Shown: piece after piece, positions 35,149-51,744 of the stretch
Layout of the letters: the number at the start of each line of letters is the position of its first letter
Numbering within the stretch: position 1 is the stretch's first letter
The notes under the pieces: model-generated
Database searches by the model: none
The model's input: only the letters and a program-made list of their open reading frames with translations
What the model was told of the DNA's origin: nothing
Program-made: the position numbers and the translations under genes
From: Peptococcaceae bacterium
GTDB taxonomy: Bacteria > Bacillota > Peptococcia > Peptococcales > BICA1-8
NCBI GenBank assembly: GCA_049366715.1
Contig: JBMNCQ010000059.1
Location: forward strand, 113,607 to 177,606
Direction: 5' to 3'
Length of the DNA: 64,000 bases

Positions 35149-36510
35149 ATGATAATGGGACTATTAACAATAATCGAAAAAGGCAAACAGGCTATTATTT
35201 TGAGCTATGTTTTGTTGTTTTTAATATATTCTTTTTTCCCTGTAGCTCAGTTAAAGGCTGTCATGTTTCCGGTTGTTATTCTGATTTTACTGATTTCTTT
35301 TCCTTCTGTAAAAGATTATAATAAATACCTGGCTTTAGGATTATTTGCCCTGGGGGCAGCTCTGATGATTTATAATCAAGGCGGCATCTTCGATATCATT
35401 ACAGGGTTTACGGATAATGCGGGCTTAATTAGCCTGATATTGACAGTGCCGCTTTTAAGTATTGTTTTTGATTTTGAAAATTTTGACCGGACAATCAGCA
35501 ACATAACAAATAAATACATAGATTCGTCCCGAAGTTTTTATGTCACAACTCTCCTGACCATTAACAGCTTAGGTATGCTGCTGAATCTGGCAAGCATCCC
35601 CTTGGTGCATCAGGTGTTAGGTAATACCGGTGAGAGATATCCCGCAAAATTGTATTATCGCGCTTTGACCAGAGGCTTTTGCGTAAATTTATTGTGGTCT
35701 CCTAATTTTGTTTCTATAGCTGTCGTTTTAAACTATATAGACATTTCGTGGTATAAGCTTGCTCCGTTGGGTTTTTTGCTGGCTATGGTCAACAATATTC
35801 TGGGCATCTTTCTTGAGCAAAAAGCTTTTCTGCCGGCGGAGGAAAAAAGTGAAGCTAGGAGACCGGTTAAAGCCGTTGAAAAAGGGAAACTTTCGAAATT
35901 GATCCTCTTGATGGTGAGTTTGATTTTATTCATTATTATCTTGGAACTGATTATTCAGAAAAGTGTTTTAGTCGTAGTCCCTTTGGTATCCTTTGCGGCT
36001 CCTGTATTGCTTGCCCTGGCATTTGGCAAAACCCAAATTTTTAGAACTAAGTTTAAAGATTATTATGTTAATGGCTTAGCAGGTAAAACTAATGAAGTAT
36101 TTTTGTTTACGGCAATAGGTTTCTTTGGGTATGCCCTGGGCAGGTCACCCTTTCAAGAGTATATTCCCCTGTTAATAGAAAAATTTGGTATTGCTACCCC
36201 TGCTCCTTTAATGTTTTTAATATTATTTATTATTGGCGGTTTATCTGTGACAGGTGTGCATCCTTTAGTCAGTATTTCCGCAATCGCGGTAACCGTACCC
36301 GTCGCCTCTACTCCTCTTAATGAACTGCAGATGGCTCTCACCCTGTTAACGGGTTATATGATCTACAATTTACTTTCGCCATTCTCGATCCCTACATTGG
36401 TGGTTTCAGATTTAGCAAAGGAAAACCCCTTAACGGTGTCCTTAAAGTTAAATCTGCCGTATGTTTTATTATCAGGATTTTTTACGATTTTGATTGCCTT
36501 ATTTTTATAA
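35149..36510 (+). CDS. Polytopic membrane protein / putative permease, family not recognised
   Basis: 453 aa with at least 10 hydrophobic segments; located upstream of glycerate kinase. Confidence 0.55.
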   Translation: MIMGLLTIIEKGKQAIILSYVLLFLIYSFFPVAQLKAVMFPVVILILLISFPSVKDYNKYLALGLFALGAALMIYNQGGIFDIITGFTDNAGLISLILTVPLLSIVFDFENFDRTISNITNKYIDSSRSFYVTTLLTINSLGMLLNLASIPLVHQVLGNTGERYPAKLYYRALTRGFCVNLLWSPNFVSIAVVLNYIDISWYKLAPLGFLLAMVNNILGIFLEQKAFLPAEEKSEARRPVKAVEKGKLSKLILLMVSLILFIIILELIIQKSVLVVVPLVSFAAPVLLALAFGKTQIFRTKFKDYYVNGLAGKTNEVFLFTAIGFFGYALGRSPFQEYIPLLIEKFGIATPAPLMFLILFIIGGLSVTGVHPLVSISAIAVTVPVASTPLNELQMALTLLTGYMIYNLLSPFSIPTLVVSDLAKENPLTVSLKLNLPYVLLSGFFTILIALFL

Positions 36511-36583: not shown

Positions 36584-37720
36584 ATGAAAAAGATCGTTAT
36601 TGCACCGGATTCTTTTAAAGGAAGCATGTCGGCTAAAGAGGTATGTGATGCGCTGGAGAGAGGAGTGAAAAGTGTCATTCCTGCTGTGGAAATTATTAAG
36701 ATTCCCATGGCAGACGGAGGGGAAGGAACGGTAGAGACTTTAGTAGATGCCACTGAAGGCAGGCTGGTTGAGCTAAATGTGCTGGACCCGTTAGGGAAGC
36801 CGGCTCCTTCCTATTTTGGTATCTTAGGCGATGGAACAACAGCTGTGATTGAAATGGCTCTGGCATCAGGATTAACTATGGTGCCTAAAGAACGGAGGAA
36901 TCCTCTTTTTACTACGACTTATGGTACGGGCCAGCTTATTAAGGCTGCTGTAGAGAGCGGATGCAGGGAATTCATGATCGGCATCGGCGGAAGTGCGACT
37001 AACGACGGCGGAGTCGGCATGGCTCAAGCTCTGGGAATAAAGTTTCTGGATGAGGAAGGCCGGGAAATAGCATACGGGGGAGGAAACCTGGGTAAAATCA
37101 AAAAAATCGACATGACTAATCTGGATAGCAGGATCAGCGAATGTAAATTTAAAGTTGCCTGTGATGTTGACAATCCTTTATGTGGCCCCAAAGGCGCCTC
37201 TCATGTTTTTGGACCCCAGAAAGGTGCTACGCCGGAAATAGCTGCATTTCTGGATCAATCGTTAGCCCATTTGGCGGAAGTGATTAAAAAAGACTTAGGC
37301 CGGGATGTTGCCGCGGAACCCGGTGCGGGTGCGGCCGGAGGATTAGGCGCCGGTTTGCTGGCTTTCTGTAATGCCGAGCTGCAGAGAGGGATCGAATTAG
37401 TTATCGAAGCGACAAACATAGCAGAAAAGATGACAGGGGCGGATTTAGTCATAACAGGGGAAGGACAGATGGATTTTCAAACTGCCCATGGTAAAACCGC
37501 TTATGGAGTTGCCCGGATCGCGAAAAAGAAAAATATCCCGGTAATTGCTCTGGTGGGAACAATTGGAACCGGTACGGAGGTATTATATGAAAAAGGGATA
37601 AATGCAATTTTTTCTATTTTGGAAGGACCGATGTCCCTTGATGAATGTATGCAAGCCGGACCGCAGCTTGCCGAACGGGCTGCAGCCCGCATCATCAGAG
37701 CATTGCAAATCCGCTTTTAA
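36584..37720 (+). CDS. glxK: Glycerate kinase
   Basis: MKKIVIAPDSFKGSMSAKEVCDALERG...MADGGEGT...ITGEGQMDFQTAHGKT. Confidence 0.9.
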   Translation: MKKIVIAPDSFKGSMSAKEVCDALERGVKSVIPAVEIIKIPMADGGEGTVETLVDATEGRLVELNVLDPLGKPAPSYFGILGDGTTAVIEMALASGLTMVPKERRNPLFTTTYGTGQLIKAAVESGCREFMIGIGGSATNDGGVGMAQALGIKFLDEEGREIAYGGGNLGKIKKIDMTNLDSRISECKFKVACDVDNPLCGPKGASHVFGPQKGATPEIAAFLDQSLAHLAEVIKKDLGRDVAAEPGAGAAGGLGAGLLAFCNAELQRGIELVIEATNIAEKMTGADLVITGEGQMDFQTAHGKTAYGVARIAKKKNIPVIALVGTIGTGTEVLYEKGINAIFSILEGPMSLDECMQAGPQLAERAAARIIRALQIRF

Positions 37721-37845: not shown

Positions 37846-37922
37846 CGGGGTGTGGCTCAGTTTGGTAGAGCGCTGCGTTCGGGACGCAGAGGCCGCAGGT
37901 TCAAATCCTGTCACCCCGACCA
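37846..37922 (+). tRNA. tRNA-Pro (anticodon CGG), CCA encoded
   Basis: Acceptor CGGGGTG/CACCCCG, D-arm GCTCAGTTTGGTAGAGC, anticodon stem CTGCG/CGCAG with loop TTCGGGA, T-arm GCAGGTTCAAATCCTGT, and a 3' ACCA. Confidence 0.9.
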
Positions 37923-37935
37923 TTTTTTAGAGAGG

Positions 37936-38490
37936 ATGGCCTTGATGCAGCAAGAGCGGAAAGAGTTGGATCAAAAACTCTTAGAAGCGTACGAGGACCT
38001 AAGCAGAACCTTTTGGAATGTAAAAGACAGCCTGGGAGACCTTCCTCAGGGAAGTTTACCCAGTATAGAAAGACTTAAGATCGTTGAGCGTAAATTAACT
38101 ACCGAACGGAGGCTTTTGGAAGAGATCAGTCTGCCTTGCAGATTTATTCTTGAACACTTTACAACATTCATGGGGAAACTTGATCATACTATAGGTTACA
38201 AAGTGGGACAGTTTCAAGTAGGACGAGCCCTTTTGAGTGATTTCTATATTGAAGAATGGGGCAATATTATTCTGAGCCTGGGGAATGTGCAATTAACCTG
38301 GCGGGATGAAGATTATCACTATTTATTTTATCCGGATAAGGTTATTCTGAGGTCTTGTGACAGGGCTAAGCAGGAAATCCATTTATATTTTAGCTTTGCC
38401 TTTAAATACTCCCATTTATTAGAATTATTCCAGGATTTACCCAAACATGCTCAGGTGGATTACTGGCACGAAGATTTGGTAATGAATTAA
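37936..38490 (+). CDS. Hypothetical protein (184 aa)
   Basis: Track ORF 37852 overlaps the tRNA, so I moved the start to ATG 37936 after GAGAGGA. No family recognised. Confidence 0.5.
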   Translation: MALMQQERKELDQKLLEAYEDLSRTFWNVKDSLGDLPQGSLPSIERLKIVERKLTTERRLLEEISLPCRFILEHFTTFMGKLDHTIGYKVGQFQVGRALLSDFYIEEWGNIILSLGNVQLTWRDEDYHYLFYPDKVILRSCDRAKQEIHLYFSFAFKYSHLLELFQDLPKHAQVDYWHEDLVMN

Positions 38491-38668
38491 GAACTCTTAG
38501 GGGGTTCTTTTTTAATTTTAATTTGCTGCTTTTATTAAAGTCCGGCAAATTTTTACCAGTAAAAATAGGGTATAAAAATTTTCTTGAAATTTATGAAATA
38601 AAAGAGGATAAGAGGCCAGGATGGTGAATATAATTAAATATGAAATTTTCATAAAATTTTTTCAAATA

Positions 38669-38724
38669 ACATGTATGATGTCTCATGTGTTTATTTTTTT
38701 CTTAACTTGTATGATGTCATTTGT
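38669..38724 (+). promoter_or_regulatory. Two direct copies of ACnTGTATGATGTC(T)CAT(T)TGT; candidate GntR/FadR-type operator overlapping the promoter of the first catabolic operon
   Basis: ACATGTATGATGTCTCATGT at 38669-38688 and ACTTGTATGATGTCATTTGT at 38705-38724. The second copy runs into TATAAG, a -10-like hexamer. Confidence 0.45.
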
Positions 38725-38764: not shown

Positions 38765-39499
38765 ATGACGGTTATTCATAAAGATTTATGCACCGGCTGC
38801 AAAATTTGTAACAAATATTGTACTGTTGATGCGATTCATTATTCTCCTGAGGAGAAGAAATGTTTTATTGACCAGTCCAGGTGTACGGAATGTTATGTAT
38901 GCTTAAGACAGAAGGTCTGTCCGAGGGGTGCGATTCAGCCTGTGGAGTTAGACGGCTTCTATAAACAATTTCAGCACGTAATCAGTGATCCTGTTGAAAG
39001 TCATGGGGTTACGGGAGTAAGCGGCCGGGGGACGGAAGAAGTAAAAACAAATGACGTATCAGGCAGAACCCGCAAAGGTGAAGTAGGGATTTGTATTGAT
39101 ATGGGACGTCCCGGTCTGGGTGTATATTTAAGGGATGCAGAAAAGGTTGCCATGGCAATTGCTGCTGCCGGGGCAGAACTGGCACCCGCTGAACATACTC
39201 CGTTAGCGGCTTTGATGCCGGATTTAAAAACCGGCAGATTAGAGGAAGCCTGCTTGGATTATCATCTCTTGTCGGTCATTGTAGAGGCAAAGTGTCAGGA
39301 GATGCAGCTTAGGGAAGTGTTGCAGGCCCTGCAAAAAATTGCAAAAGAAATCGATACGGTATTTTCTTTGGGATTAATCGTACGCACTGATGAAAAAGGA
39401 AAGACTAAGGTCCTGGATTGTTTGGATGAATTAGGAATACCACGGCCGTATCGCGGCAAAGTCAATGTCGGCTTAGGAAAACCATTATCTTTAGCTTAG
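38765..39499 (+). CDS. Module 1, subunit A: N-terminal 2x[4Fe-4S] ferredoxin domain fused to an unrecognised ~180-aa domain
   Basis: CTGCKICNKYC and CTECYVCLRQKVCP, then the conserved SDPVESHGVTGVSGRGTEEVKTNDVSGR...GEVGICIDMGRPGLG...EIDTVFSLGLI...KVNVGLGKP. Confidence 0.8.
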   Translation: MTVIHKDLCTGCKICNKYCTVDAIHYSPEEKKCFIDQSRCTECYVCLRQKVCPRGAIQPVELDGFYKQFQHVISDPVESHGVTGVSGRGTEEVKTNDVSGRTRKGEVGICIDMGRPGLGVYLRDAEKVAMAIAAAGAELAPAEHTPLAALMPDLKTGRLEEACLDYHLLSVIVEAKCQEMQLREVLQALQKIAKEIDTVFSLGLIVRTDEKGKTKVLDCLDELGIPRPYRGKVNVGLGKPLSLA

Positions 39500-39515: not shown

Positions 39516-40163
39516 GTGACGCATTCTTTACATCGTTCAGGTTCTCTGGAATCACAGAAAAAAGATTTCAACTGGTTCATGTATCAGACGCAAGGAGTTA
39601 ATGATACAAACATTAAAGAAAAGGCTTTAGAATTTATTGCCGTAGCGGAAGCATTAGGCTCAGAAAACTGGGGAGATGTTAAGACAGGGCCTAAAACCCA
39701 GTACCCTGTAGAATATATCAAGGAAAATATCACGAATAAATCCCGGATCAGGGGAGTATTTACCCGTAAAGAACAGGTAGTAGAATTTCTAAAACAAATT
39801 AAAGCCAAGGATTTAGACCAATCAGTGGTCATTACCGGGGTTTTGTCTGAAGTACTGCCGGCTTGTCAAGAGGCGGAAGTTAAACCCCATTCGATAAATT
39901 ACTCATTAGGCGTATGGGGGAAGAAAGATAACCTGCCTGATGAAACAACCCTCTCTATAACGACCATGTGCGGGCATCATATGATTCCGCCTAAATATGT
40001 TGAATATATGATTGAACAAGTTAACAAGGGACGTCTTACCGCAGATGAAGCAGCAATAAAGTTAGCTAATTTCTGCTATTGCGGTATTTTCAATCAGGTA
40101 AGATGTGCCGAAATTATTCATGAAACGGTTGCCGCCGCAGGCGAAGCTGCCGCTCTGGAATAA
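39516..40163 (+). CDS. Module 1, subunit B: 'MTHSLHR' protein with conserved MCGH and CxCG motifs, unrecognised family
   Basis: GTG start 16 nt after the subunit A stop, behind GAAGGGAGGAA. MTHSLHRSG...KPHSINYSLGVWG...TTMCGHHMIPP...KGRLTADEAAIKLANFCYCGIFN. Confidence 0.8.
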   Translation: MTHSLHRSGSLESQKKDFNWFMYQTQGVNDTNIKEKALEFIAVAEALGSENWGDVKTGPKTQYPVEYIKENITNKSRIRGVFTRKEQVVEFLKQIKAKDLDQSVVITGVLSEVLPACQEAEVKPHSINYSLGVWGKKDNLPDETTLSITTMCGHHMIPPKYVEYMIEQVNKGRLTADEAAIKLANFCYCGIFNQVRCAEIIHETVAAAGEAAALE

Positions 40164-40186
40164 GTATTAAAAAAGTTAACCCCCCT

Positions 40187-40236
40187 GGGAGGATAAATAA
40201 ATTTCTCAGCAACCCCTTTATTTGATTTATCCTCCC
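40187..40236 (+). other. Long imperfect hairpin between module 1 and the Ldh_2 gene
   Basis: GGGAGGATAAATAAAT ... ATTTGATTTATCCTCCC, about 15 bp of pairing with a ~17-nt loop and no clear T-run. Confidence 0.5.
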
Positions 40237-40266
40237 ATCCTAATTTTTATACATGGTGGGATTATT

Positions 40267-41331
40267 TTGACGAATAAATTTAGGTTTCACTACAAGGAAC
40301 TATTTGATTTTTCTGAAAACATCCTGGTTAATTCCGGAGTCCCTGAAAAACATGCGGAGATCGTTGTTAAAGTCTTGATCCAAGCTGATCTTGAGGGGAT
40401 ATCATCCCATGGACTGACCAGGCTGCCTGTTTATCTGGAGAGAATAGAAAAGGGTTTAATCAATACAAATCCCCGGATCGCTTTGGACTTTCCTTTCCCG
40501 GCCTTAGGAGTGCTGGATGCCGATAACAGCTTAGGCCATGTAGCGGCACATACCGCTATGGAGGAATTGATCATTAAAGCCAAGGAGTATGGTATCGCCG
40601 GAATTGGGATTAGGAACAGTAATCATTTCGGTGCCGCTTCATATTACGCCAATATGGCTATGCAACATAACTTGGTGGGAATTGTTCTATCTAACGGACC
40701 TCCGGCAATACCTCCCTGGGGTTCATATGAGCCGTATTTGGGAACAAATCCTATCGCCGTCTCTATTCCCGGCGGAGATGAATATGGTCCCCTGGTCATT
40801 GACTTAGCGACAAGTATTGTTGCCAGGGGGCGGATTATCAAGGCAGCTTTAGAGGGACTGCCTCTTGAACCCGGCTGGGCCTTAGATTCAAAGGGCAAAC
40901 CTACAACAAATGCCGGTGCGGCTTTACAGGGATGTATTTTGCCAATGGCACAGCATAAAGGTGCTGCCTTGGCAATGGCAGTAGAGATATTAGCCGGTTT
41001 GCTGACCGGTGCAGGCTATGGAAAAGATGTCATCTGGCAAATGAGCGACCTGCCATTGCCTGGTAACGTCGGTCATCTCCTGATTTCTTTCAATCCGGAG
41101 GGATTTTTGAATATTCCGGTTATTAAGGCTAAGATGGATTCTATGATGAAAGAGATGAAAAGTTTACCCAAAGCTTATGGCTTTACGGAAATTAGAATTC
41201 CCGGAGAAAAAGGACGAAAAATGGCAGAAAGCAATAAACAAAAGGGAATTATTTTGAGCAGGGAATTGGTAGAAAAGTTTGCACACCTTGCTGTTAAACT
41301 ATCGGTTCCCCTGCCAAAATCAATGATTTAA
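40267..41331 (+). CDS. Ldh_2 family (malate/L-lactate/sulfolactate-type) 2-hydroxyacid or imino-acid dehydrogenase
   Basis: Start moved to TTG 40267. ADLEGISSHGLTRLPVYLERI, NSNHFGAASYY, GTNPIAVSIP, and ATSIVARGRI are typical Ldh_2 motifs. Confidence 0.8.
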   Translation: MTNKFRFHYKELFDFSENILVNSGVPEKHAEIVVKVLIQADLEGISSHGLTRLPVYLERIEKGLINTNPRIALDFPFPALGVLDADNSLGHVAAHTAMEELIIKAKEYGIAGIGIRNSNHFGAASYYANMAMQHNLVGIVLSNGPPAIPPWGSYEPYLGTNPIAVSIPGGDEYGPLVIDLATSIVARGRIIKAALEGLPLEPGWALDSKGKPTTNAGAALQGCILPMAQHKGAALAMAVEILAGLLTGAGYGKDVIWQMSDLPLPGNVGHLLISFNPEGFLNIPVIKAKMDSMMKEMKSLPKAYGFTEIRIPGEKGRKMAESNKQKGIILSRELVEKFAHLAVKLSVPLPKSMI

Positions 41332-41350: not shown

Positions 41351-42079
41351 ATGAGAGTAGATCAAGAAAAATGTATGGGCTGCGGGATATGTGTGCCGTA
41401 CTGTCCTGCTAATGCGATTACGATCCGGAACAAAAAGGCGCAGATTGATGAAGAGGCTTGTTTTGAATGTGGCAATTGCCTGAGGACGAGAGTTGTAAGA
41501 TGTCCTCAAGGTGCTTTTTACGAACAGCCCGGCCTTTATGAGAGTACCAGAGCAGCCAGAAGGTTTTTTAGCGACCCGATGACTACTCATTCTGTTACCA
41601 AGATTCCCGGCCGGGGTACGGAAGAGGTAAAAACAAATGATGTTACCGGACGGGTTGTGCGGGGGGAAATCGGTATTGCAATTGAGATGGGACGACCTTG
41701 TTTGGGAACCGATATGAATCAGGTCGAAAAAGTCACAATTGCCCTGGGGGAATTGGGTTTGGAATTTGAAGAAATGAATCCTTTAACTCATCTGATGGAA
41801 GACCGTAATAAAGGTACCATCAAGCCGGAATACAAAGATGAGAAAATGGTTTCCTGTATTATTGAGTTTACCGCACCGAAATCCCTGCTGGTTCCGGTGA
41901 TGAATGTTTTGAAAAAGGTTGCTGCTGAAATCAATACCGTTTTCTCTCTGGATTTAATATACCGCTTTAATGAGGACGGTTCATTACCAATTCTGCCTGA
42001 ATTAGAAAAACTGGGTGTCAGAGTACGCAAAAATTCTAAGGTTAACCTGGGTATGGGTCGGCCGGTTATTACTGTATAG
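41351..42079 (+). CDS. Module 2, subunit A (divergent paralog)
   Basis: CMGCGICVPYCP and CFECGNCLRTRVVRCP, then SDPMTTHSVTKIPGRGTEEVKTNDVTGR...GEIGIAIEMGRPCLG...EINTVFSLDLI...KVNLGMGRP. Confidence 0.8.
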   Translation: MRVDQEKCMGCGICVPYCPANAITIRNKKAQIDEEACFECGNCLRTRVVRCPQGAFYEQPGLYESTRAARRFFSDPMTTHSVTKIPGRGTEEVKTNDVTGRVVRGEIGIAIEMGRPCLGTDMNQVEKVTIALGELGLEFEEMNPLTHLMEDRNKGTIKPEYKDEKMVSCIIEFTAPKSLLVPVMNVLKKVAAEINTVFSLDLIYRFNEDGSLPILPELEKLGVRVRKNSKVNLGMGRPVITV

Positions 42080-42092
42080 GAGGATTTTAGAT

Positions 42093-42740
42093 ATGACACA
42101 TTCATTGCACCGGAGAGGTACCGAAGAAAGTTTAAAGGATGATTATGTCTTATTGGTCACATCAGCTTATGGTTTTAATCATGAAGGATCAAAAGAAAAA
42201 ATGCGTAAAATACTTGATGAAGTTTTTGCTATGGAGCCTTGTAATATTGGCTCCTATGATACGGGTACCATCCTGGGGGGGGTTGATATTCAGGAAATCC
42301 GGGATGCGTTAAATGATGTGCCCCGGGTTAGGTGTGCTTTTTCTTCTAAGGAACAAATGAAAGCCGTATTAAAAAGAATAAAAGAGCTCGATCTCGGTTT
42401 ATCCGTTACGGTCAGCGGTTTAACAGATGAAGTATTAGATATTGCCCGGGAATTAGAAATTAAACCTCATTGTGTTAATCTCTCCTTAGAAGTTTGGGGT
42501 AATGTAGAAAAACTTCCTTCTGAAGAAATATTGGAACTTGTTACGATGTGCGGTCATGGCCTTATTTCTTCCGGTTTGGCCGCAGATTGCCTAGCAAAAG
42601 TAAAAAAAGGCCGGATGACTGCCAGAGAGGCTGCTGTTAAGATATCTCACCCCTGTGTGTGCGGTATCTATAACCCAGATAGAGCAGAAAAATTACTGGA
42701 AAAATACGTACCCTCAAAAGAAGGCCGGGAAATGGCTTAG
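42093..42740 (+). CDS. Module 2, subunit B (divergent paralog)
   Basis: Start moved to ATG 42093, 13 nt after the subunit A stop and behind AGGAGG. MTHSLHRRG...KPHCVNLSLEVWG...VTMCGHGLIS...KGRMTAREAAVKISHPCVCGIYN. Confidence 0.8.
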   Translation: MTHSLHRRGTEESLKDDYVLLVTSAYGFNHEGSKEKMRKILDEVFAMEPCNIGSYDTGTILGGVDIQEIRDALNDVPRVRCAFSSKEQMKAVLKRIKELDLGLSVTVSGLTDEVLDIARELEIKPHCVNLSLEVWGNVEKLPSEEILELVTMCGHGLISSGLAADCLAKVKKGRMTAREAAVKISHPCVCGIYNPDRAEKLLEKYVPSKEGREMA

Positions 42741-42813: not shown

Positions 42814-43824
42814 ATGAAAATTAAGAAAATACTAGCATTATTATTGGCAGTAATGTTAGTCGCGTCTGTGGCTGCCGGATGCACCTCAGGTTCCGAGAAA
42901 GAGGAAGCCAAGCAAGGCGGGGAGAAGCCCGCATATCCGGAAAGACCTATTGAATTAGTTGTTCCTTTCAGTGCCGGGGGCGGCAGTGATATCTTTGCCA
43001 GATCAATGGTCAAAATTATTAATGACAACAAATGGGTGAGCCAGCCTCTCAATGTCGTAAACAAGCCCGGCGGCAGCGGGTCTATCGGTTATGCCTATGT
43101 TGCTGAAAAGAAAGCTGATCCATATTACAGTGCTACGGTAAGTTCCAGCTTCTATACAGCCCCCCTATTAGGAAATTCCCCGGTTTCTTATAAAGATTTT
43201 CAGCCTGTTGCCGGTTTAGCTATGGATACCCTGGCACTTTTTGTGCGGACCGAGTCCGATATCCAGAGTGTTAAGGATGTTGTGGAGAGATCTGAAGCAA
43301 ACCCCAAGAGTCTTTCCATGGGCGGAACAAGCGGAACTTCTGATGATGCCGTAATGCACCGCGTATTGCAGGATGAAGCAGGTATCGAAATTAAATATGT
43401 TCCTTTTGAAAGCGGCGGCCAGGCTATGACGGCCCTCCTCGGCGGACACGTAGATTTAGTATGGGCCAACCCCGGAGAGGCTTTAAACCAGGTTGAAGCA
43501 GGCAAAGCCCGCGCAATAGTCGTGGCCAGTGAAGAAAGAATTCCGGGCTTTGAAGATGTACCTACTTTAATGGAAGAAGGTATTGATGCCAAACTTGCCC
43601 AGTTCCGCGGATTTATTTTACCGAAGGATGCCCCGCCAGAAGCCGTAGAATACTGGGAAGACGTTCTTAAGAAGCTTCATGAGAGTGAGGCCTGGCAGGA
43701 AGACTATATTAAGAAAAACTCAATTACTCCCCGTTTCTTAGGTCAGGAAGAATTTGCTGAAGCCATCGTTGAACTTAGTGACATGTATGCCGAGATCTTC
43801 GAAAAAATCGGAGCAACTAAGTAA
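42814..43824 (+). CDS. tctC: Tripartite tricarboxylate transporter substrate-binding lipoprotein
   Basis: Lipobox VAAGC; Bug/TctC signature PIELVVPFSAGGGSDIFARSM. Confidence 0.9.
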   Translation: MKIKKILALLLAVMLVASVAAGCTSGSEKEEAKQGGEKPAYPERPIELVVPFSAGGGSDIFARSMVKIINDNKWVSQPLNVVNKPGGSGSIGYAYVAEKKADPYYSATVSSSFYTAPLLGNSPVSYKDFQPVAGLAMDTLALFVRTESDIQSVKDVVERSEANPKSLSMGGTSGTSDDAVMHRVLQDEAGIEIKYVPFESGGQAMTALLGGHVDLVWANPGEALNQVEAGKARAIVVASEERIPGFEDVPTLMEEGIDAKLAQFRGFILPKDAPPEAVEYWEDVLKKLHESEAWQEDYIKKNSITPRFLGQEEFAEAIVELSDMYAEIFEKIGATK

Positions 43825-43878
43825 TAAAATGAGGGAGAGCATGCTCTCCCTCATTATGAAAAGAAGGGGGGTTCTATT

Positions 43879-44334
43879 ATGAAAAAGGCTGACCAAATTA
43901 CGGGTAGTATCCTCTTAGCCCTTTCTGTCTATATCATGAAATCGGCGGCTTCCCTTGTGTTATGGAATGAAGGCGCGCCAGGGCCGGGATTTGTTCCTTT
44001 CTGGGTGGGAATATTTTTAGCAATTTGCTCAGTGGTCTTAATTATGACTACTTTAGGTAAAAAATATCAGCAGCAGGACCGGATATTTTCTAAAGAAGGC
44101 TTTCAGTATCTGACAGTAGTATGCGGTTCGGCTATTGTTGCCGGTTTAATCGTAAATGTGGTAGGGATGGTATTGGCAATGGGCTTAATGGCCGGAGTAT
44201 TAGTGACGGTTTTATCGGAAGAAAGAAAAATAATTACTTCCCTGGGCACGGTCGTTGTGCTTCCGATGGTATTCTATCTTATCTTTAAAATAGCTTTAGA
44301 CGTTCCGTTGCCAATGGGAATCTTTGGTTTTTAG
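43879..44334 (+). CDS. tctB: Tripartite tricarboxylate transporter small membrane subunit
   Basis: 151 aa with 4 TM helices, located between tctC and tctA. Confidence 0.8.
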   Translation: MKKADQITGSILLALSVYIMKSAASLVLWNEGAPGPGFVPFWVGIFLAICSVVLIMTTLGKKYQQQDRIFSKEGFQYLTVVCGSAIVAGLIVNVVGMVLAMGLMAGVLVTVLSEERKIITSLGTVVVLPMVFYLIFKIALDVPLPMGIFGF

Positions 44335-44351: not shown

Positions 44352-45866
44352 ATGCTTGAAACATTTTCCAATTTATTATACGGCTTTTCAGTGGCGATAA
44401 CTCCTATCAATATTTTGTATTGCTTGGTGGGGGTAATATCCGGAACTGTTATCGGTGCCCTGCCCGGCTTAGGTCCGTCAGCAGGATTGGCGGTACTTTT
44501 ACCCCTTACCTTCGGGGCTGATCCTGTGTCAGGCATAATCATGCTGGCAGGTATCTACTACGGTGCCATGTATGGCGGTGCGATTACTTCCATCCTGATT
44601 AATACGCCCGGTGACTCGGCTGCGGTTATGACGACCTTGGACGGTTATCCCTTAACGATAAAGGGCAAGGCAGGTCCGGCTATGGGCATGGCTGCTTTCA
44701 GTTCCTTTATCGGCGGGACATTCGGTATAATTGTTTTTACCTTTTTGGCCCCGGCGCTGGCTAAATTTGCCCTTTCCTTCGGACCTCCGGAATATTTTGC
44801 TTTAATGGTATTGGGCTTGACAACTCTGGCCGGAATGACGGGGAGCAATCCTACCAAAGGTTTTATCAGTGCCCTCATAGGCTTAATGCTGGCTGTCGTT
44901 GGTTTGGACCTGGTGACAGGATTGCCCAGGTATACCTTTGGCAGAATGGAGTTATTCAGCGGGATCGATTTTATTCCGGTAGCTATGGGTGTCTTTGGTA
45001 TCGGAGAAATACTGGTTACTGCCGAAGAAAAATTTGATATAGATGCCCTTAAAAAGGCTGATTTAAGCTTTAAAAGATTATTTCCATCCGCCCGGGACTG
45101 GGCGAGATCTAAATGGGTCATTATCAGGGGAACAGTTGCAGGATTCTTTATCGGAATGCTCCCCGGAGCAGGGGCGACAATCGCATCCTTTATCTCTTAC
45201 GGTATGGCTAAAAAATCATCTAAGCATCCGGAAGAATTCGGGCAAGGGGCCATCGAAGGTGTTGCCGCACCGGAATGTGCCAATAATGCTGCATCGGTAG
45301 GAGCTTTTGTACCTTTATTAACCCTCGGTGTACCGGGCTCCGCCAGCACAGCGATTTTAATGGGAGCTTTGATGATGTTTGGGTTACGCCCCGGCCCGCT
45401 GCTTTTTGAGAGAAATCCTGATTTTGTCTGGGGTCTTATCGGAAGTATGTATGTTGGCAATGTTATCCTAATATTAATGGTAATGGTTTTTGTACCCATT
45501 TTTGTCAGGGTATTACAGGTACCCAGGGCATCATTGAATGCTGTAGTCATGGCCTTTATTTTAATGGGTGCTTATAGTTTGAATAACAGTATGTTTGATG
45601 TCTATCTCACAATTGGTTTCGGTGTGCTGGGATATTTCATGAAAAAACTTAATTATCCTGGTGCGCCCCTGGTACTGGCTTTAGTATTAGGACAGCTTTT
45701 AGAGAATTCCCTCCGGCAATCTTTAATATTATCGGAAGGATCCGTAGGAATTTTCTTTGCCCGGCCGATTTCGGCGCTATTAATGATTGTCGCAATCGGA
45801 GCTGTATTTGTGCCAATTTTTAAAGGAATGATCAAGAAAATAAAATCGAACAGCATTTCTGCTTGA
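44352..45866 (+). CDS. tctA: Tripartite tricarboxylate transporter large permease
   Basis: 504 aa: GALPGLGPSAGLAVLLP, INTPGDSAAV, and GMLPGAGATIASF. Confidence 0.9.
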   Translation: MLETFSNLLYGFSVAITPINILYCLVGVISGTVIGALPGLGPSAGLAVLLPLTFGADPVSGIIMLAGIYYGAMYGGAITSILINTPGDSAAVMTTLDGYPLTIKGKAGPAMGMAAFSSFIGGTFGIIVFTFLAPALAKFALSFGPPEYFALMVLGLTTLAGMTGSNPTKGFISALIGLMLAVVGLDLVTGLPRYTFGRMELFSGIDFIPVAMGVFGIGEILVTAEEKFDIDALKKADLSFKRLFPSARDWARSKWVIIRGTVAGFFIGMLPGAGATIASFISYGMAKKSSKHPEEFGQGAIEGVAAPECANNAASVGAFVPLLTLGVPGSASTAILMGALMMFGLRPGPLLFERNPDFVWGLIGSMYVGNVILILMVMVFVPIFVRVLQVPRASLNAVVMAFILMGAYSLNNSMFDVYLTIGFGVLGYFMKKLNYPGAPLVLALVLGQLLENSLRQSLILSEGSVGIFFARPISALLMIVAIGAVFVPIFKGMIKKIKSNSISA

Positions 45867-45946
45867 CAATAATTTATTTAGCCATTAAATTCTGTATGAG
45901 GGTAAATTTATTAAAAAGCGATGTTTTTAATGGCTGGAGGGTAATT

Positions 45947-46666
45947 ATGTTTAAACCTGTAGTAGAAACCCATACAAGTTTATCAGATAAAATTGTTGAG
46001 CAGATTAAAGAAATGATTATTTCCCATGAACTAAAACCGGGAGATAAACTGCCTTCGGAAAATGAATTATGTGATATGTTTAATGTCAGCCGTACTTCCA
46101 TTAGAGAAGCGGTAAAAATTCTTTCCGGGCTGGGCTTCCTGAAAATAAGGCGGGGCTTAGGGATTTTTGTGGAGGAATTAGATGTGACCCATATTATCAA
46201 TCAGCTATCGCCTATTTTAATTCAACGGGAAGATGATCTCCTGGATATTGTCCGGGTGCGTAAGATTTTAGAAACACATGCCGCCGCCTGGGCTGCCGAG
46301 AATGCAAAACCTGAAGATATCAGAGAAATGGAAGCGGCGGTTGAACATTCCCAGGAACTTGTGGACAGCGGCCTGGCTAACGGTGAAAACCTGCCGGAAG
46401 CCAATCTGAATTTTCATATGGTATTAGCCAGAAGTACCGGCTCTAAAATATTGTTCAGGATCATGCAATCTCTCTGGGATATCTTATCTGAGGCGAGAAA
46501 AATCACAGTACAATTGCCGGGACGGAAGAAAAAATCTGTTTCAGGCCATAAAGAAATTTTAAAGGCCATCAAAAATAGAGATCCTCTGGCTGCTCAAAAA
46601 GCCATGCTGGAACATTTAGAGGCTATTGAGACAGTGGTATCTGATTCTGATCATAACAATAGCTAG
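45947..46666 (+). CDS. GntR-family regulator, FadR subfamily (FCD domain)
   Basis: Start moved to ATG 45947 after GGAGG. wHTH LKPGDKLPSENELCDMFNVSRTSIREAVKIL, and a helical FCD-like C-terminus with FH..L and H...I. Confidence 0.85.
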   Translation: MFKPVVETHTSLSDKIVEQIKEMIISHELKPGDKLPSENELCDMFNVSRTSIREAVKILSGLGFLKIRRGLGIFVEELDVTHIINQLSPILIQREDDLLDIVRVRKILETHAAAWAAENAKPEDIREMEAAVEHSQELVDSGLANGENLPEANLNFHMVLARSTGSKILFRIMQSLWDILSEARKITVQLPGRKKKSVSGHKEILKAIKNRDPLAAQKAMLEHLEAIETVVSDSDHNNS

Positions 46667-46681: not shown

Positions 46682-47557
46682 ATGAGATTAGCCACAATTA
46701 AATTGAATCAGGAAGAAGTAGCTGCTATTGTTACTGCCCGGGGAGTAGTAACTGTAGCAGCAGTCAATAAAAAATTTGCACAAAGCTGGCCGGTGGATCT
46801 GCTGGAAATTATTCGGACAGGGCAGCTGGCAAAGCTGAATGAATGGTATAAAGGCGGGGGTAAGGACCAGCTTGAGACTGTGGAATATATCCCTCAGAAT
46901 GAGATCCGTTATGCTCCCTTGTATAGACGTCCCAGGAAGATCTGGGGCATTGGTTTAAATTATGTTGATCATGCGGCAGATCTTGCCGAGAAAGCTCCCA
47001 ATACTGAGCCGGCCAGTTTTATGAAACCTGATACCAGTATTATCGGACCGGGGGATACGATTGAAATTCCTGTCCAGTCGGGAAAAACTACTGCCGAAGC
47101 TGAATTAGGTGTAATATTCGGCCAAGAGTGCAAAGATGTAAAAAAAGAAAACTGGCTCAGTGTCGTAGCGGGTTTCACTACGATTATCGACATGACGGCC
47201 GAAGATATCTTAAGGGTGAATCCCCGCTACTTAACAAGGTCCAAAAGTTTTGATACCTTCTTTAGCTTCGGACCTGAACTTGTTACTCCGGATGAGATAG
47301 AGGAAGTTTTAAAACTTCAGGTAGCTACGGTAATAAATGGAGAAGTATTTGCCCGGAATGTTGTGAGCAATATGACTTTCCCTCCCGATTATTTAGTAGC
47401 CTTTCATTCTCAAGTAATGAAAATGCTACCTGGTGACATCATTTCCACAGGAACTCCCCGTGCCGTACACATTCATGACGGGGATGTTGCGGAGTGCCGG
47501 ATTGACGGCTTCAGACCTTTAGTGAATCCGGTTAAAGATTTAAAAGCCGGTAAATAG
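46682..47557 (+). CDS. Fumarylacetoacetate hydrolase (FAH) family hydratase/decarboxylase/isomerase
   Basis: KIWGIGLNYVDHAADL, AELGVIFG, and GDIISTGTP. Confidence 0.85.
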   Translation: MRLATIKLNQEEVAAIVTARGVVTVAAVNKKFAQSWPVDLLEIIRTGQLAKLNEWYKGGGKDQLETVEYIPQNEIRYAPLYRRPRKIWGIGLNYVDHAADLAEKAPNTEPASFMKPDTSIIGPGDTIEIPVQSGKTTAEAELGVIFGQECKDVKKENWLSVVAGFTTIIDMTAEDILRVNPRYLTRSKSFDTFFSFGPELVTPDEIEEVLKLQVATVINGEVFARNVVSNMTFPPDYLVAFHSQVMKMLPGDIISTGTPRAVHIHDGDVAECRIDGFRPLVNPVKDLKAGK

Positions 47558-47744: not shown

Positions 47745-48635
47745 ATGAAAATCGAAATCAAGGGTGTTTTTCCACCCATTACCACACCTTTTGATGATCA
47801 GGAAAAGATTGATTTTCGGGCTTTAGAAATAAATTTAAATAAATGGAACAGCACGGATTTAGCGGGATATGTTATCTTTGGTTCAAACGGAGAGTATGCT
47901 TTTTTATCAGAGACAGAAAAGCTGGATATTGTCAAGTCCTGTGTTGGTGCCGCCGGTGCAGGTAAAAAAATCATCGTTGGTTCCGGCTGTGAGTCAACAA
48001 GGGATACAATTGAGCTTACTAACAAATGTGCCGGGCTGGGGGCGGATGCGGGATTAATCATTACCCCCAATTACTACAAAGGAAGTATGAATAAAAGAGC
48101 CTTGCAGGCACATTTTACTAAAGTAGCCGATCATTCTGATATTCCTATCCTGATTTATAATGTTCCTAAATTTACGACAATTAATCTGGATGCCGGCTTG
48201 GTAGCGGAACTAGCTCAGCATCCTAATATTATCGGCATAAAAGACAGTTCTGCTAATATAACTCAGTTAAGTCAAATCATCGATATGACTCCTGAAGATT
48301 TCAATGTTTTGGTGGGAACGGCCGGTGTCCTTTTCCCTGGATTAGTGACGGGAGCTAAAGGCGGGGTTATGGCATTGGCTACCTGCTGCCCTCAGGAGTG
48401 TCTGGATATCTATGATTTATGCGGTCAGGGTAAACTGGAGGAGGCGAAAAAACTCCAGCTCCGGATGATTCCTGTCAATAATGCGGTAACAGGTACTTTG
48501 GGGATACCGGGATTAAAAGCGGCGATGGACTTGTTAGGTTTTGCCGGGGGACCCGTCAGAGGACCGTTACTTCCCCTTGTAGAAAACGAAATGGCTGAAC
48601 TTAAAAACATCCTTGCCAAAGCAGAATTAATTTAA
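47745..48635 (+). CDS. DapA/NAL-family class I (Schiff-base) aldolase or dehydratase
   Basis: GVFPPITTPF, GSNGEYAFLSETEK, IPILIYNVP, and IIGIKDSS (catalytic Lys context). Confidence 0.85.
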   Translation: MKIEIKGVFPPITTPFDDQEKIDFRALEINLNKWNSTDLAGYVIFGSNGEYAFLSETEKLDIVKSCVGAAGAGKKIIVGSGCESTRDTIELTNKCAGLGADAGLIITPNYYKGSMNKRALQAHFTKVADHSDIPILIYNVPKFTTINLDAGLVAELAQHPNIIGIKDSSANITQLSQIIDMTPEDFNVLVGTAGVLFPGLVTGAKGGVMALATCCPQECLDIYDLCGQGKLEEAKKLQLRMIPVNNAVTGTLGIPGLKAAMDLLGFAGGPVRGPLLPLVENEMAELKNILAKAELI

Positions 48636-48678
48636 AACCAACCCTGGTGTACAGTTCTTACACCAGGGTTGGTTTTTT
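48634..48678. terminator. Bidirectional terminator between the convergent dapA-like and DASS genes
   Basis: AAAACCAACCCTGGTGT-loop-ACACCAGGGTTGGTTTT is a 17-bp perfect stem. Confidence 0.85.
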
Positions 48679-50116
48679 AAGGTGCTATTCCTAACAGGGG
48701 CCAGTAAAATTTTGCCAGTACGGTAGTAACTGTGATGATAATCAGTGCGGTATAGCATCCTGCCCGCAGCATATCCTTAATGCTGTAATAACCGGTGTTA
48801 TATGATGTTAAATGGGCCAGGGACTGGGTAGGCAGAAAGACCCCCAGCACAGAAGCGCTGATCCCGATAAGTCCGAACCAGACCGGATTGATGTTTAAGG
48901 AGAAGGAAAGGGTGATAATCATCGGAAAGGTAGTGGCAACCATAGATAAGAGGTTGGGAAAACCCAAGCGGATAAAGCCCATAATGATCATGGTCAGAAT
49001 TCCCAGGGTCAAGGGATTCATACCGTGTAAGGCCGCAAATATTGTTTCGGATATCCATTGGATTGCCTGAGAAGCTGTTAAAGCATCAACGATTGCCAGA
49101 CTTGCCCCCAGGAGGAGGACAACACCCCAATCAATCCCTGCTAAGGCTTTTTTCCAGGAAATGATTTCTATTCCCGGAAGCATCAGCAGTACGGCGATGA
49201 ACATGCAGGTCTGGGAAATGGACATGTTCACTTTGTCTTCTAAAATCCAGAGGATGATCATCAGTGACATCAGAAGAAATATTTTTATTTCCTTCCGGGA
49301 CAGTCTGCCTAATTTAGCTAATTCGGCTTTAATAAACACTGTGCCCCCTGGAATATAATTAATTTCCGGAGGAAATATTTTCAGAAATAAGAGCCAGATT
49401 GCGAAATTTATGATGATTACGCTGGGCATTAAAGCCAGCATCCAGTCAATATAACTCCAGGAATAATTTGCCAGGCTTGTAAAAATTCCTGTGGCATAAA
49501 CCATTGATACCGCACCGGTCATTAAGCCGATACTGCCGATGAAGGAGCAGAATGATATGGATATGAACATGGATTTCCCTATATTACAACCCGGCTCAAG
49601 CTGCATGGCTTTGATCATCCCTAAACAGATCGGAACCATGATCGAGACCCGTCCGGCTGCCGTAGGAATTAAAAAGACAAATAAAGTTGTGGTACAGATG
49701 ACCATGAGAAGGTTAATTCTGGCATTGCCCTTGGCGAGTTTAAGCAGGTGTAAGGCGATCCTTCTGTCCAGGCCTGTTTCCTGCATCGCTGCCGAAATAA
49801 TAAAAACACCTAATAACAGCCAGGTTGATGAATTACCCAAACCTGCAACGGCCTCCTGATATGATAGTATTTTAAAGAAAGGGAAAAGCATCATCAAAAG
49901 TAAAGCCGTTAAAGCGGGGGGGATGATTTCCTTGATCCATAAAGTAACGGCAAAAATAACTAATACCAAAGACCTCCGGCCGGCTTCCGATAAGCCTGCA
50001 GGAAGGGGTAATAATAATAAAAATGCGCAAAGCAAAGCGATCACCACAAATTGTATAAATGAAGAATCTGCCTTGTTTTTTACCTTTGCGGTCTTTTCTG
50101 CTGCATTTGTTACCAA
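48677..50116 (-). CDS. DASS/SLC13-type anion (di/tricarboxylate) permease
   Basis: 479-aa polytopic protein: RRSLVLVIFAVTLWIKEIIPPALTALL, NSSTWLLLGVFIISAAMQETGLDRRIAL, and IPTAAGRVSIMVPI. Confidence 0.7.
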   Translation of the reverse strand: MVTNAAEKTAKVKNKADSSFIQFVVIALLCAFLLLLPLPAGLSEAGRRSLVLVIFAVTLWIKEIIPPALTALLLMMLFPFFKILSYQEAVAGLGNSSTWLLLGVFIISAAMQETGLDRRIALHLLKLAKGNARINLLMVICTTTLFVFLIPTAAGRVSIMVPICLGMIKAMQLEPGCNIGKSMFISISFCSFIGSIGLMTGAVSMVYATGIFTSLANYSWSYIDWMLALMPSVIIINFAIWLLFLKIFPPEINYIPGGTVFIKAELAKLGRLSRKEIKIFLLMSLMIILWILEDKVNMSISQTCMFIAVLLMLPGIEIISWKKALAGIDWGVVLLLGASLAIVDALTASQAIQWISETIFAALHGMNPLTLGILTMIIMGFIRLGFPNLLSMVATTFPMIITLSFSLNINPVWFGLIGISASVLGVFLPTQSLAHLTSYNTGYYSIKDMLRAGCYTALIIITVTTVLAKFYWPLLGIAP

Positions 50117-50187
50117 TTCAACTCACCTCAGATTATCCTTAAAACCAGGATATTTAATTGAATACTTTATATTTTACCGGACAAGAT

Positions 50188-50218
50188 AACCGGTGCGGCC
50201 GGATATAGCCGCACGGTT
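50188..50218 (-). terminator. Weak hairpin after the prpD-like gene (possible partial terminator)
   Basis: GTGCGGC-CGGATATA-GCCGCAC with flanking extension; the T-run is poor. Confidence 0.35.
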
Positions 50219-51548: not shown

Positions 51549-51593
51549 TTGGATATTTCCTCCATTTCTTAATTTGTTTTCACTATAACATAA

Positions 51594-51609
51594 TGCAAGT
51601 TTTATGCCA
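51594..51609 (-). promoter_or_regulatory. Sigma-54 (-24/-12) promoter driving the prpD-like/DASS genes
   Basis: The minus strand reads TGGCAT-AAAAC-TTGCA (consensus TGGCAC-N5-TTGCA), about 45 nt upstream of the prpD-like start. Confidence 0.75.
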
Positions 51610-51650
51610 TCCTTTATGATATAAATTTATGAGTGAATTAAAAAAAACTT

Positions 51651-51710: not shown

Positions 51711-51744
51711 AGAGCAGGGTAGTGGCAAAGTTGGATTTTTGAGC

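Follow-up and report, generated by a model that had tools for sequence, protein, structure and literature searches.

Anciently diverged copies of a ferredoxin-domain gene pair in a putative carboxylate operon of a Peptococcaceae bacterium

The 64,000-nucleotide stretch of Peptococcaceae DNA analyzed here (contig JBMNCQ010000059.1; hereafter the window, numbered from its first nucleotide) contains two adjacent genes, A2 and B2, which encode a protein with an N-terminal ferredoxin domain and a small partner protein. They directly follow a gene for an Ldh_2-family dehydrogenase, on the other side of which lies a related pair, A1 and B1, and they precede the tctCBA genes of a tripartite tricarboxylate transporter (TTT). 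Our comparisons indicate that A2/B2 is functional and is a paralogue that separated from A1/B1 long ago and belongs to a different subfamily, and that A and B (together, AB) form a strictly paired, co-evolving two-protein family. We rate B and the non-ferredoxin part of A as new both in protein family and in fold; paralogy as such is unremarkable. We propose, with a probability of roughly 0.45, that each pair is a soluble, two-subunit, ferredoxin-wired iron-sulfur (Fe-S) enzyme that acts on imported hydroxy-carboxylates.

Two diverged gene pairs in one putative operon

All A and B genes of the window are on the + strand. A1 (38765..39499; 244 amino acids) consists of a 2x[4Fe-4S] ferredoxin domain followed by a C-terminal domain that fits no known type, and B1 (39516..40163; GTG start, 215 amino acids) matches no known family. 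A2 (41351..42079) encodes 242 amino acids, of which residues 1-56 (41351-41518) are the ferredoxin domain with its eight cysteines; further on are the loop GRGTEEVKTNDVTGR (residues 87-101, 41609-41653) and the tail K230-N232-G234-G236 (42038-42058), both invariant. B2 (42093..42740; 215 amino acids) starts with ATG and contains the motifs MTHSLHR (42093-42113), KPH126 (42462-42470), MCGH (residues 152-155, 42546-42557) and CVCGIYN (residues 188-194, 42654-42674). A longer open reading frame with a GTG start at 42015 was rejected as the beginning of B2; it overlaps A2, and the family start is the ATG at 42093.

A preliminary description of this DNA, made from the sequence alone, had claimed a diverged second A+B copy right after the Ldh_2 gene, and both the reading frames and their coordinates were as claimed. 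By BLASTP, A1 and A2 are 42% identical (102/243 residues, E 2e-59) and B1 and B2 38% identical (79/208, E 2e-49), a likeness that far exceeds chance. When the four proteins were compared with the window by tblastn, a third pair was recovered, A3 (53059-53793) and B3 (53809-54441). It is of the A1 type, with 86% and 88% identity to A1 and B1, lies in a tricarboxylate-type neighborhood and accounts for the six proteins of which the preliminary description spoke. The motifs said to be retained were all found in both copies. The eight ferredoxin cysteines are kept in A1 and A2 (A1 has one additional, non-conserved cysteine), GRGTEEVKTNDVTGR of A2 corresponds to GRGTEEVKTNDVSGR in A1, MTHSLHR and MCGH are common to B1 and B2, and CVCGIYN of B2 reads CYCGIFN in B1. 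The spacing between A and B, given earlier as 13-16 nt, measured 16 nt for A1-B1, 13 nt for A2-B2 and 15 nt for A3-B3, and a GGAGG-type ribosome-binding site precedes each B gene of the window (GGAGGA before the ATG of B2). Pfam matches bore out the proposed gene order, A1 B1 Ldh_2 A2 B2 TctC TctB TctA GntR FAH, and added a dihydrodipicolinate synthase (DHDPS)-family gene at its end. The sequence is consistent with a single operon from A1B1 to the FAH gene.

The pairing of A with B holds throughout the family. We confirmed at least 579 loci, counting one genome per species, and examined 73 of them, ranked by similarity to B2. Wherever a locus captured both genes (72 of the 73), A immediately precedes B on the same strand; the lone exception (L010) is a sequence that begins inside the pair. 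For 103 pairs the gap between the two genes could be extracted. It was mostly between -4 and +20 nt, and the commonest values were -4 nt (17 pairs), 3 nt (12), 13 nt (9), 4 nt (8) and 11 nt (7). The pairwise distance matrices of A and B were correlated with a Pearson r of 0.87, a value reached by none of 999 Mantel permutations, although shared descent inflates correlations of this kind. Cutting the two trees at 50% distance gave near-identical partitions (adjusted Rand index 0.99). The congruence of the A and B trees that the preliminary description had put forward as a sign of co-evolution was therefore found, and the telling point is that paralogues from the same genome sort alike for A and B. 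One natural A-B fusion was seen (P0388, 440 amino acids), with a divergent A loop. An apparent second fusion, in L021, proved to be a frameshift artefact. A and B most likely associate physically as a complex.

Comparison across loci also bears on the age of the duplication. The A1-type cluster contains 14 pairs, including A1B1 and A3B3, and the A2-type cluster 61 pairs, including A2B2; these numbers do not measure natural abundance, the sample having been ranked by similarity to B2. Since both clusters span phyla, the split is either ancient or was spread early by gene transfer. Two or three A/B pairs are present in 34 of the 73 loci; the A paralogues of a locus typically share 46% identity and its B paralogues 40%. 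Against the closest orthologues (76-89% amino acid identity), nonsynonymous divergence (dN) was 0.07-0.17 and synonymous divergence (dS) was saturated, being above 2 or not computable. Where dN/dS could be computed it was 0.03-0.06, and this held also for A1B1 against A3B3. Both types are thus under strong purifying selection. The inference of an old duplication stands, with A1 and A2 types as separate subfamilies over several phyla and with synonymous sites saturated even against the closest orthologues.

These data leave little to the idea that A2/B2 is a redundant, decaying duplicate. Its frames are intact and have ribosome-binding sites, all family-invariant residues are retained, and the 61 A2-type pairs that passed our length and motif filters were every one intact, so that the routine pseudogenization of A2/B2 relatives, named earlier as a point that would tell against their importance, is not seen. 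With selection as strong as given above, we regard decay as already refuted, and we found nothing in its favor. We also think it quite improbable that A1B1 and A2B2 depend on each other as parts of a single hetero-oligomeric complex. In its favor, four close metagenome-assembled genomes (MAGs; L002, L003, L004 and L032) and the cultured negativicute Sporolituus thermophilus keep the order A1B1-Ldh_2-A2B2-TctCBA, and every short-B pair described below shares its locus with a full-length pair. Against this, many loci (L005, L007 and L013, among others) have an A2-type pair by itself with TctCBA. The A1 type is found by itself in Anaerosolibacter carboniphilus, in the minimal unit GntR-TctCBA-A-B, in a Desulfotomaculum, where a CitA/DcuS-like two-component system stands beside A-B-TctCBA-AbrB, and as A3B3 within the window. 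Because each type occurs alone, the pairs look like autonomous units rather than obligate halves of one complex. For the same reason, each type being found by itself beside a transporter, two different substrate specificities for A1B1 and A2B2, as originally suggested, are plausible, and the residues that separate the types include G156H of B beside the CGH motif; sequential steps around the Ldh_2 reaction would fit equally well.

Conserved core, folds and spread of the family

Alignment of 234 full-length B sequences gave 16 positions conserved in at least 95%: M1, H3, H6, R7, D17, G102, S104, G109, H126, G136, C153, G154, H155, C188, C190 and N194. B has exactly three invariant cysteines (C153, C188 and C190), beside the invariant H155, and one invariant arginine, R7; a second arginine, R197, is conserved in 91%. 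Among 104 A sequences, the eight cysteines of the ferredoxin domain are 100% conserved. The other positions at or above 95% are P76, T83, the run G87-R88-G89-T90-E91-E92-x-K94-T95-N96-D97-V98, R101, G108, G114-R115-P116, P144, G155, S168, I170, E172, F198, K230, N232, G234 and G236. H126 and D17 in B, and GRP, E172 and KxNxGxG in A, are invariant beyond the motifs that had been named before. The few residues that differ between the A1 and A2 types are T23Y, S54D, P77S, C81G, K88Q, T106V and G156H in B, the last directly following the CGH motif, and G41Y, E58P, E112D, T129A, D201G, R226P and N228R in A. The paralogy thereby offers a ready comparison, in which invariant residues would define the core and clade-specific residues are candidates for specificity.

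The proposal that the retained motifs define the core of the family is supported, with one caveat. They are invariant in the sequences just described, but MCGH and CxCG are missing from a short-B subfamily of about 140 amino acids from Desulfosporosinus and Gracilibacter, which keeps MTHSLHR and KPH and is without the MCGH/CxCG domain. Because short B lacks both motifs, these are not indispensable to every member. The short genes (L020 13432-13854; L025 17070-17489; L030 13420-13839; L043 7965-8381) end at a similar position in four genomes, with PRVRC replaced by SPVMC, and a short-B pair always lies beside a full-length pair.

Outside the ferredoxin domain, A and B resemble nothing closely. 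Residues 1-56 of A belong to the 2x[4Fe-4S] bacterial ferredoxin domain; A2 matches Pfam Fer4 (E 7.7e-12) and Fer4_7 (E 1.5e-7) over these residues only, and in Foldseek comparisons this part aligns with ferredoxins at probability 1.0, with a root-mean-square deviation of 1.2-2.9 A over 53-61 residues. The remaining 180 or so residues of A have no Pfam or NCBIfam match, nor does any part of B, and a sequence search of the PDB returned ferredoxin domains alone for A and nothing for its C-terminal domain or for B. AlphaFold2 models built on about 120 homologues per protein were confident, with a predicted local distance difference test score (pLDDT) of 91.5 for B2 and 81.0 for A2. Neither model had a Foldseek match in the PDB at E<=1e-3, and the only strong-probability match of the A model was for its ferredoxin domain (HgcB, HydB and ferredoxins). 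The C-terminal domain of A was weakly similar to DUF77/MTH1187, PII, ACT, CutA and McrD (for the ACT/PII/DUF77-like folds, E 0.018-0.08 and a query-normalized TM-score of about 0.23), and the N-terminal half of B to small ferredoxin-fold proteins (best E 0.028). Helices make up the modeled C-terminal half of B, and the CGH and CxC loops lie between them. For A2, the pLDDT is only 63-69 over the region of the invariant loop (residues 61-100) and below 50 in the tail, which would fit segments that are ordered only against a partner.

Other signals were too weak to identify B. Its Pfam matches over 122 members were scattered and below threshold (GatB_Yqey in 45 members, best E 0.004; DUF2180; DUF2102), and we rejected all three as uninformative. 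An hhalign comparison aligned A 174-236 with B 80-133 at E 0.0034 and a probability of 9.6%, over the stretches 'ELGI..P...VN.GLG' in A and 'ELEIKPH.VNLSL' in B. A distant internal homology of A and B may underlie this; we treat it as a lead and do not count it as evidence. A mitoNEET-type CDGSH domain in B was rejected as well. The CDGSH motif reads C-x-C-x2-(S/T)-x3-P-x-C-D-G-(S/A/T)-H, whereas in B the CGH (153-155) precedes the CxC (188-190), with 32 residues between them, and zf-CDGSH was not among the 25 most frequent weak Pfam matches of the 122 B members.

The family is large. A search with B2 returned 1549 clusters at 90% identity; among the 120 clusters listed, the names given by the sources were all 'hypothetical protein' and none had a Pfam domain. 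An exhaustive hidden Markov model search of 1.84 billion representatives gave 831 B clusters at 50% identity with E<=1e-3, of which 486 reached 1e-10 and 227 reached 1e-30. The profile of the A C-terminal domain matched at least 6577 proteins. The 120 A relatives listed are mostly of 242-244 amino acids and have Fer4 matches only; a few are shorter and probably partial. Their names are generic or borrowed, for example 'indolepyruvate ferredoxin oxidoreductase alpha' or 'PreA'. IorA has about 600 amino acids with thiamine-diphosphate and pyruvate-ferredoxin-oxidoreductase domains, and PreA has an FMN dihydroorotate-dehydrogenase-like domain. We rejected an indolepyruvate:ferredoxin oxidoreductase alpha, PorD or PreA identity for A, given its length and its exclusively Fer4-type matches, all below the equivalog cut-offs; such labels on A homologues stem from the ferredoxin domain alone. 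The carriers span Bacillota, Desulfobacterota-type lineages, Synergistota and Chloroflexota and include one Bathyarchaeon. Most are strict anaerobes, among them Peptococcaceae-like MAGs, Desulfosporosinus, Desulfitobacterium, Negativicutes, Lachnospiraceae, Erysipelotrichaceae, Tissierellia, Synergistales, deltaproteobacterial lineages and Anaerolineae. We found no account of the A/B pair in the literature.

Proposed function and competing explanations

The genes next to AB point to carboxylate metabolism. A tct gene is present in 47 of the 73 loci, in 43 of them within 400 nt and on the same strand as A or B (TctA in 46 loci, TctC in 44, TctB in 36), and AB was the most frequent enzymatic neighbor of TTT transporters in the loci sampled. 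In several loci it lies between tctC and tctB. Ldh_2 genes occur in 20 loci, directly adjoining AB in 10. Other recurrent neighbors are GntR regulators (17 loci), HIBADH-like dehydrogenases (14), HOGA1-like DHDPS-family genes (13), PdxA-like genes and sigma-54 activators (12 each), xylose-isomerase-like TIM barrels, LysR regulators and Fer4_11 proteins (10 each), DUF1932 NAD-binding proteins (9, of which 7 are 0-74 nt from AB), AbrB-type membrane proteins (7), IlvD/EDD dehydratases (5) and aldehyde:ferredoxin oxidoreductases (AFOR; 5, at 25-431 nt from AB). In the window itself there is no recognized dehydratase or Fe-S step besides AB. Such company looks like a route for breaking down small di- and tricarboxylates of hydroxy, oxo or polyhydroxy character, with substrates of the tartrate, aldarate or sugar-acid type.

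Electron-transfer partners recur as well. Five loci without a TTT transporter (L028, L029, L042, L044 and L051) have AB flanked by one or two AFOR genes, together with an AorA-like Fe-S protein and a HIBADH-like dehydrogenase. Two of these, L042 and L044, belong to the MAGs that also contain L001 and L002, which means that close relatives of the window organism have additional AB pairs. In four loci a Pyr_redox_2 gene precedes A by 0-6 nt, and the Gracilibacter locus is closed by NuoE and NuoF-GltD-like genes. In about 20 clusters from Bacteroidota and Chloroflexota MAGs (P0308 and relatives), B carries a polyferredoxin fused to its C-terminus. In the two contexts examined (L081 4216-6088 and L082 7231-9239) the A gene keeps its place upstream, and in L081 a flavoprotein with Fer4_11 and Pyr_redox_2 domains lies just ahead of it. 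Because of these recurring partners we favor a redox-active enzyme over a plain hydro-lyase.

In the model we propose, each A/B pair would form a soluble two-subunit Fe-S enzyme in which the N-terminal 2x[4Fe-4S] domain of A ferries electrons between an external carrier and the catalytic center. The carrier would be a ferredoxin or, in some lineages, NAD(P)H by way of the adjacent flavoprotein. A would contribute its invariant polar loop and tail to the center (GRGTEE-KTND, GRP, E172 and K230/N232). B would contribute H3, H6, R7, D17 and H126 and a Cys3-His site (C153, H155, C188 and C190) that probably holds either an additional Fe-S cluster or a metal. The enzyme would work on a small di- or tricarboxylate of the hydroxy, oxo or polyhydroxy kind that the adjacent TTT transporter takes up, and the chemistry would most likely be an electron-dependent removal or conversion of a hydroxyl, that is, reductive dehydroxylation or electron-assisted dehydration. 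Products may pass to the Ldh_2, HOGA1-like and FAH enzymes, and A1B1 and A2B2 may differ in substrate or catalyze consecutive steps of the same pathway. We infer from the patterns above that A and B form a complex with an extra metal site, that the catalysis is redox and what class of substrate is used; the reaction itself is a guess. That AB founds a new class of ferredoxin-wired Fe-S enzymes is a stronger statement, and an unlikely one at present. Such a class would have a new B fold and would convert hydroxyls of free hydroxy-dicarboxylates or sugar acids, not CoA-activated, without flavin, molybdenum, tungsten or thiamine diphosphate, by reductive dehydroxylation or electron-assisted (radical) dehydration, with paralogous pairs differing in specificity.

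Several points weigh against an enzyme of the kind proposed. No catalytic domain and no flavin, molybdenum, tungsten or thiamine-diphosphate site is recognizable in A or B. Both non-ferredoxin parts resemble small ferredoxin-fold (ACT/PII/DUF77-like) alpha+beta domains, which often bind ligands rather than catalyze. The Cys3-His domain cannot be a universal active site because the short-B subfamily is without it. The neighbor frequencies are biased toward A2-type contexts, since the 73 loci were ranked by similarity to B2, and our literature search found no expression, proteomic or biochemical datum on A or B.

The dehydratase reading is a serious rival, although we rate it as rather unlikely. 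Here AB would be a redox-neutral Fe-S hydro-lyase that turns tartrate- or aldarate-type polyhydroxy-dicarboxylates into 2-oxo or 2-keto-3-deoxy acids for the aldolase, Ldh_2 and FAH proteins, and A1B1 and A2B2 would be two substrate-specific dehydratases, comparable to GudD/GarD or TtdAB/FumA of E. coli. The window would suit it, having an aldolase for a 2-keto-3-deoxy-type acid and an upstream glycerate kinase and lacking, as said, a recognized dehydratase, and so would the gar/glx-like neighbors found across loci (tartronate-semialdehyde-reductase-like HIBADH, Hyi-like TIM barrel and glycerate kinase). The three invariant cysteines of B recall the 3-Cys [4Fe-4S] dehydratases, and the two subunits recall class-I fumarase and L-tartrate dehydratase. 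However, known Fe-S dehydratases are without the ferredoxin domain that is invariant in A, in some lineages AB also comes with polyferredoxin fusions and with NAD(P)H flavoproteins that are translationally coupled, and five AB loci already have an IlvD/EDD dehydratase. Short B is without the three cysteines, and AB has no sequence or fold likeness to any hydro-lyase family. For aconitase, class-I fumarase/TtdAB, IlvD/EDD and L-serine dehydratase, no profile matched A2 or B2 at E<=0.01, none was among the 25 most frequent weak Pfam matches of the 122 B members at E<=5, and Foldseek gave no match. A different possibility, which we consider improbable, is that AB is not an enzyme at all but a ligand-binding or electron-transfer accessory, a specialized ferredoxin with ACT-like sensor domains that couples AFOR, flavoproteins or Ldh_2-type dehydrogenases or regulates TTT-dependent uptake. 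The fold likenesses of the A C-terminal and B N-terminal domains to ACT, PII, DUF77, CutA and McrD, the frequent position of AB beside AFOR with an AorA-like Fe-S protein or beside flavoproteins, and its insertion between tctC and tctB would agree with such a role. The minimal loci argue against it, for they consist of a regulator, TctCBA and AB and offer no other redox enzyme to serve. Furthermore, the many invariant polar, histidine, arginine and cysteine residues, conserved while dS is saturated, look catalytic, and two or three paralogous pairs in so many loci suit pathway enzymes better than an adaptor.

Known systems share single traits with AB. The clostridial-type 2x[4Fe-4S] ferredoxins (HgcB, the HydB C-terminus and the C. 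acidurici ferredoxin) resemble residues 1-56 of A in their eight invariant cysteines, but this domain is a quarter of A, and neither B nor the other 180 residues of A show any relation to them. The second cysteine motif of A also has a long spacer unlike theirs (CxxCxxC-x7-CP in A2, x5 in A1). LutABC/YkgEFG and GlcDEF are soluble or peripheral multi-subunit Fe-S systems that oxidize free 2-hydroxy acids; a protein with a 2x[4Fe-4S] domain (LutB, GlcF) wires the electrons, and the genes lie beside carboxylate transporters and GntR regulators. AB shares the 2x[4Fe-4S] protein and the transporter and GntR neighborhood with LutABC/GlcDEF. It differs from them in having two subunits rather than three and in its folds, and no CCG (LutABC/GlcF/HdrB-type), LUD/DUF162 or FAD-binding domain was found in A or B with Pfam and NCBIfam. 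The reductive dehydroxylases IspH and IspG, which receive electrons from ferredoxin or from flavodoxin with an NAD(P)H reductase, serve as a working analogy only, with three invariant cysteines and a histidine in the catalytic subunit. The substrates of AB are presumably carboxylates, not diphosphates, the cysteine domain is missing from short B, and A and B had no LYTB or GcpE Pfam match and no match to the IspH/IspG folds.

Two further comparisons concern the rival readings. TtdAB and the archaeal/clostridial fumarase alpha/beta proteins are, like AB, two small, translationally coupled subunits of anaerobes. TtdAB and class-I fumarase act on C4 hydroxy-dicarboxylates, and their paralogous pairs differ in specificity. 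Unlike AB, these enzymes are without a ferredoxin domain, and A and B have no Fumerase or Fumerase_C homology. The ACT, PII, DUF77 (MTH1187/YkoF), CutA and McrD domains are the best structural neighbors of the A C-terminal and B N-terminal domains, and their beta-alpha-beta-beta-alpha-beta topology fits, but the Foldseek matches are weak (E 0.02-0.5, query-normalized TM-scores 0.2-0.3), there is no sequence signal, and these domains do not have the invariant His, Arg and Cys set of A/B.

The interest of AB lies in a widespread module, without known family or fold beyond its ferredoxin domain, that is tightly linked to a class of transporters which has received little study. Anaerobes are rich in TTT transporters, of which, to our knowledge, almost none has a known substrate or linked pathway. 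Working out the AB reaction would correct thousands of annotations, would probably reveal a new Fe-S catalytic site, and would light a blind spot in the anaerobic degradation of carboxylates and sugar acids by subsurface, gut and rumen organisms. If the new enzyme class is real, it would supply the step that many anaerobes seem to lack in the oxygen-independent breakdown of aldarates, tartrate or hydroxy acids.

Other genes and elements of the window

The Ldh_2 gene (40222..41331, + strand) encodes a protein of the NAD(P)-dependent 2-hydroxyacid/imine dehydrogenase family; its true start is probably the TTG at 40267, behind GGTGGGA. Its nearest PDB entries are L-sulfolactate and malate dehydrogenases. 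L-sulfolactate dehydrogenase is the nearest NCBIfam relative too, but a sulfonate (sulfolactate) pathway was set aside, with an Ldh_2 score of 295 bits against an equivalog cut-off of 500 and no sulfur-related neighbors. A hydroxyproline or imino-acid pathway, with Ldh_2 as imine reductase and the DHDPS-family gene as deaminase, is a further possibility. In the 103-nt spacer between B1 and Ldh_2, a 19-bp hairpin (40184..40237, + strand; dG -24 kcal/mol, z -2.0) is followed by a U-rich stretch and is a possible attenuator or RNA processing site within the putative operon.

The transporter genes are tctC (42814-43824), tctB (43879-44334) and tctA (44352-45866), all on the + strand. TctC matches its Pfam family at E 2.8e-35 and its nearest PDB entries are TTT binding proteins; TctB and TctA are orthologous to Pfam-annotated genes in related loci. 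Directly 3' of tctC is a perfect 12-bp palindromic hairpin (43828-43855), and hairpins of this kind typically raise expression of the binding protein relative to the membrane subunits. A GntR/FadR-family regulator of the FCD type follows (45863..46666, + strand). Its start is probably the ATG at 45947, because profile matches begin near residue 36-43 and the orthologues have about 237 amino acids. The FAH-family enzyme (46682..47557, + strand) is HpcE/HpaG-like and also resembles 2,4-diketo-3-deoxyrhamnonate hydrolase; 2,4-diketo-acid hydrolases are included in this family. The closest solved relative of the DHDPS-family aldolase (47745..48635, + strand) is the 4-hydroxy-2-oxoglutarate aldolase HOGA1, the human protein matching at E 1.9e-76 as compared with 8e-43 for a dihydrodipicolinate synthase.

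Upstream of A1, a terminator-like hairpin with a T-run (38489..38509, + strand) closes the preceding unit, and the A1 unit starts downstream of it. Between the hairpin and A1 are two exact copies of TGTATGATGTC (38672-38682 and 38708-38718, + strand), which lie 36 nt apart and 47-93 nt upstream of A1 and contain ATGA-N2-TCAT. L032 has the word upstream of its A1 as well, and Sporolituus (L078) has it there with a single mismatch. This direct repeat is a candidate operator on which the GntR regulator might act. A TGAAAT-N3-TGAAAT repeat seen by eye at about 38585-38602, some 170 nt upstream of A1, is common to L003, L032 and L080. In the window, as in L003 and L032, a glycerate kinase gene (here 36584-37720) is found upstream of the A1 unit. 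It is directly preceded by a gene for a 453-amino-acid multi-pass membrane protein (35149-36510) that has no Pfam match at E<=1e-5 and may be an uncharacterized carboxylate permease; the pair of membrane protein and kinase is also kept in L032. A tRNA-Pro(CGG) lies just upstream of the A1 unit (37846-37922), and a search of the window with Rfam found nothing but one tRNA. Two proteins of the window were also looked up by exact sequence, with no match. The open reading frame 37852-38490, if it is a gene, must have a later start because the listed one is inside the tRNA.

The region around A3B3 (48677-63464) contains a DASS/CitMHS symporter and a PrpD/MmgE gene, both on the - strand, an Iso_dh-family dehydrogenase, A3, B3 and a gene for an M29-like protein. 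These are followed by a flavoenzyme with OYE and Pyr_redox domains (2-enoate-reductase-like) and by aconitase-type large and small subunits, and the region ends with a second TctCBA set (TctC at 59373-60389) and a second M29-like protein. M29-like genes adjoin TctC also in L002, L045, L047 and L064. Elsewhere in the window, whose GC content is about 36-46%, a PrkA/DUF444/SpoVR-like trio lies at 22889-27427 and, taken with the relatives found, fits a spore-forming, Peptococcaceae-like member of the Bacillota as the source of the DNA; these three genes are a conserved set associated with stress and sporulation.

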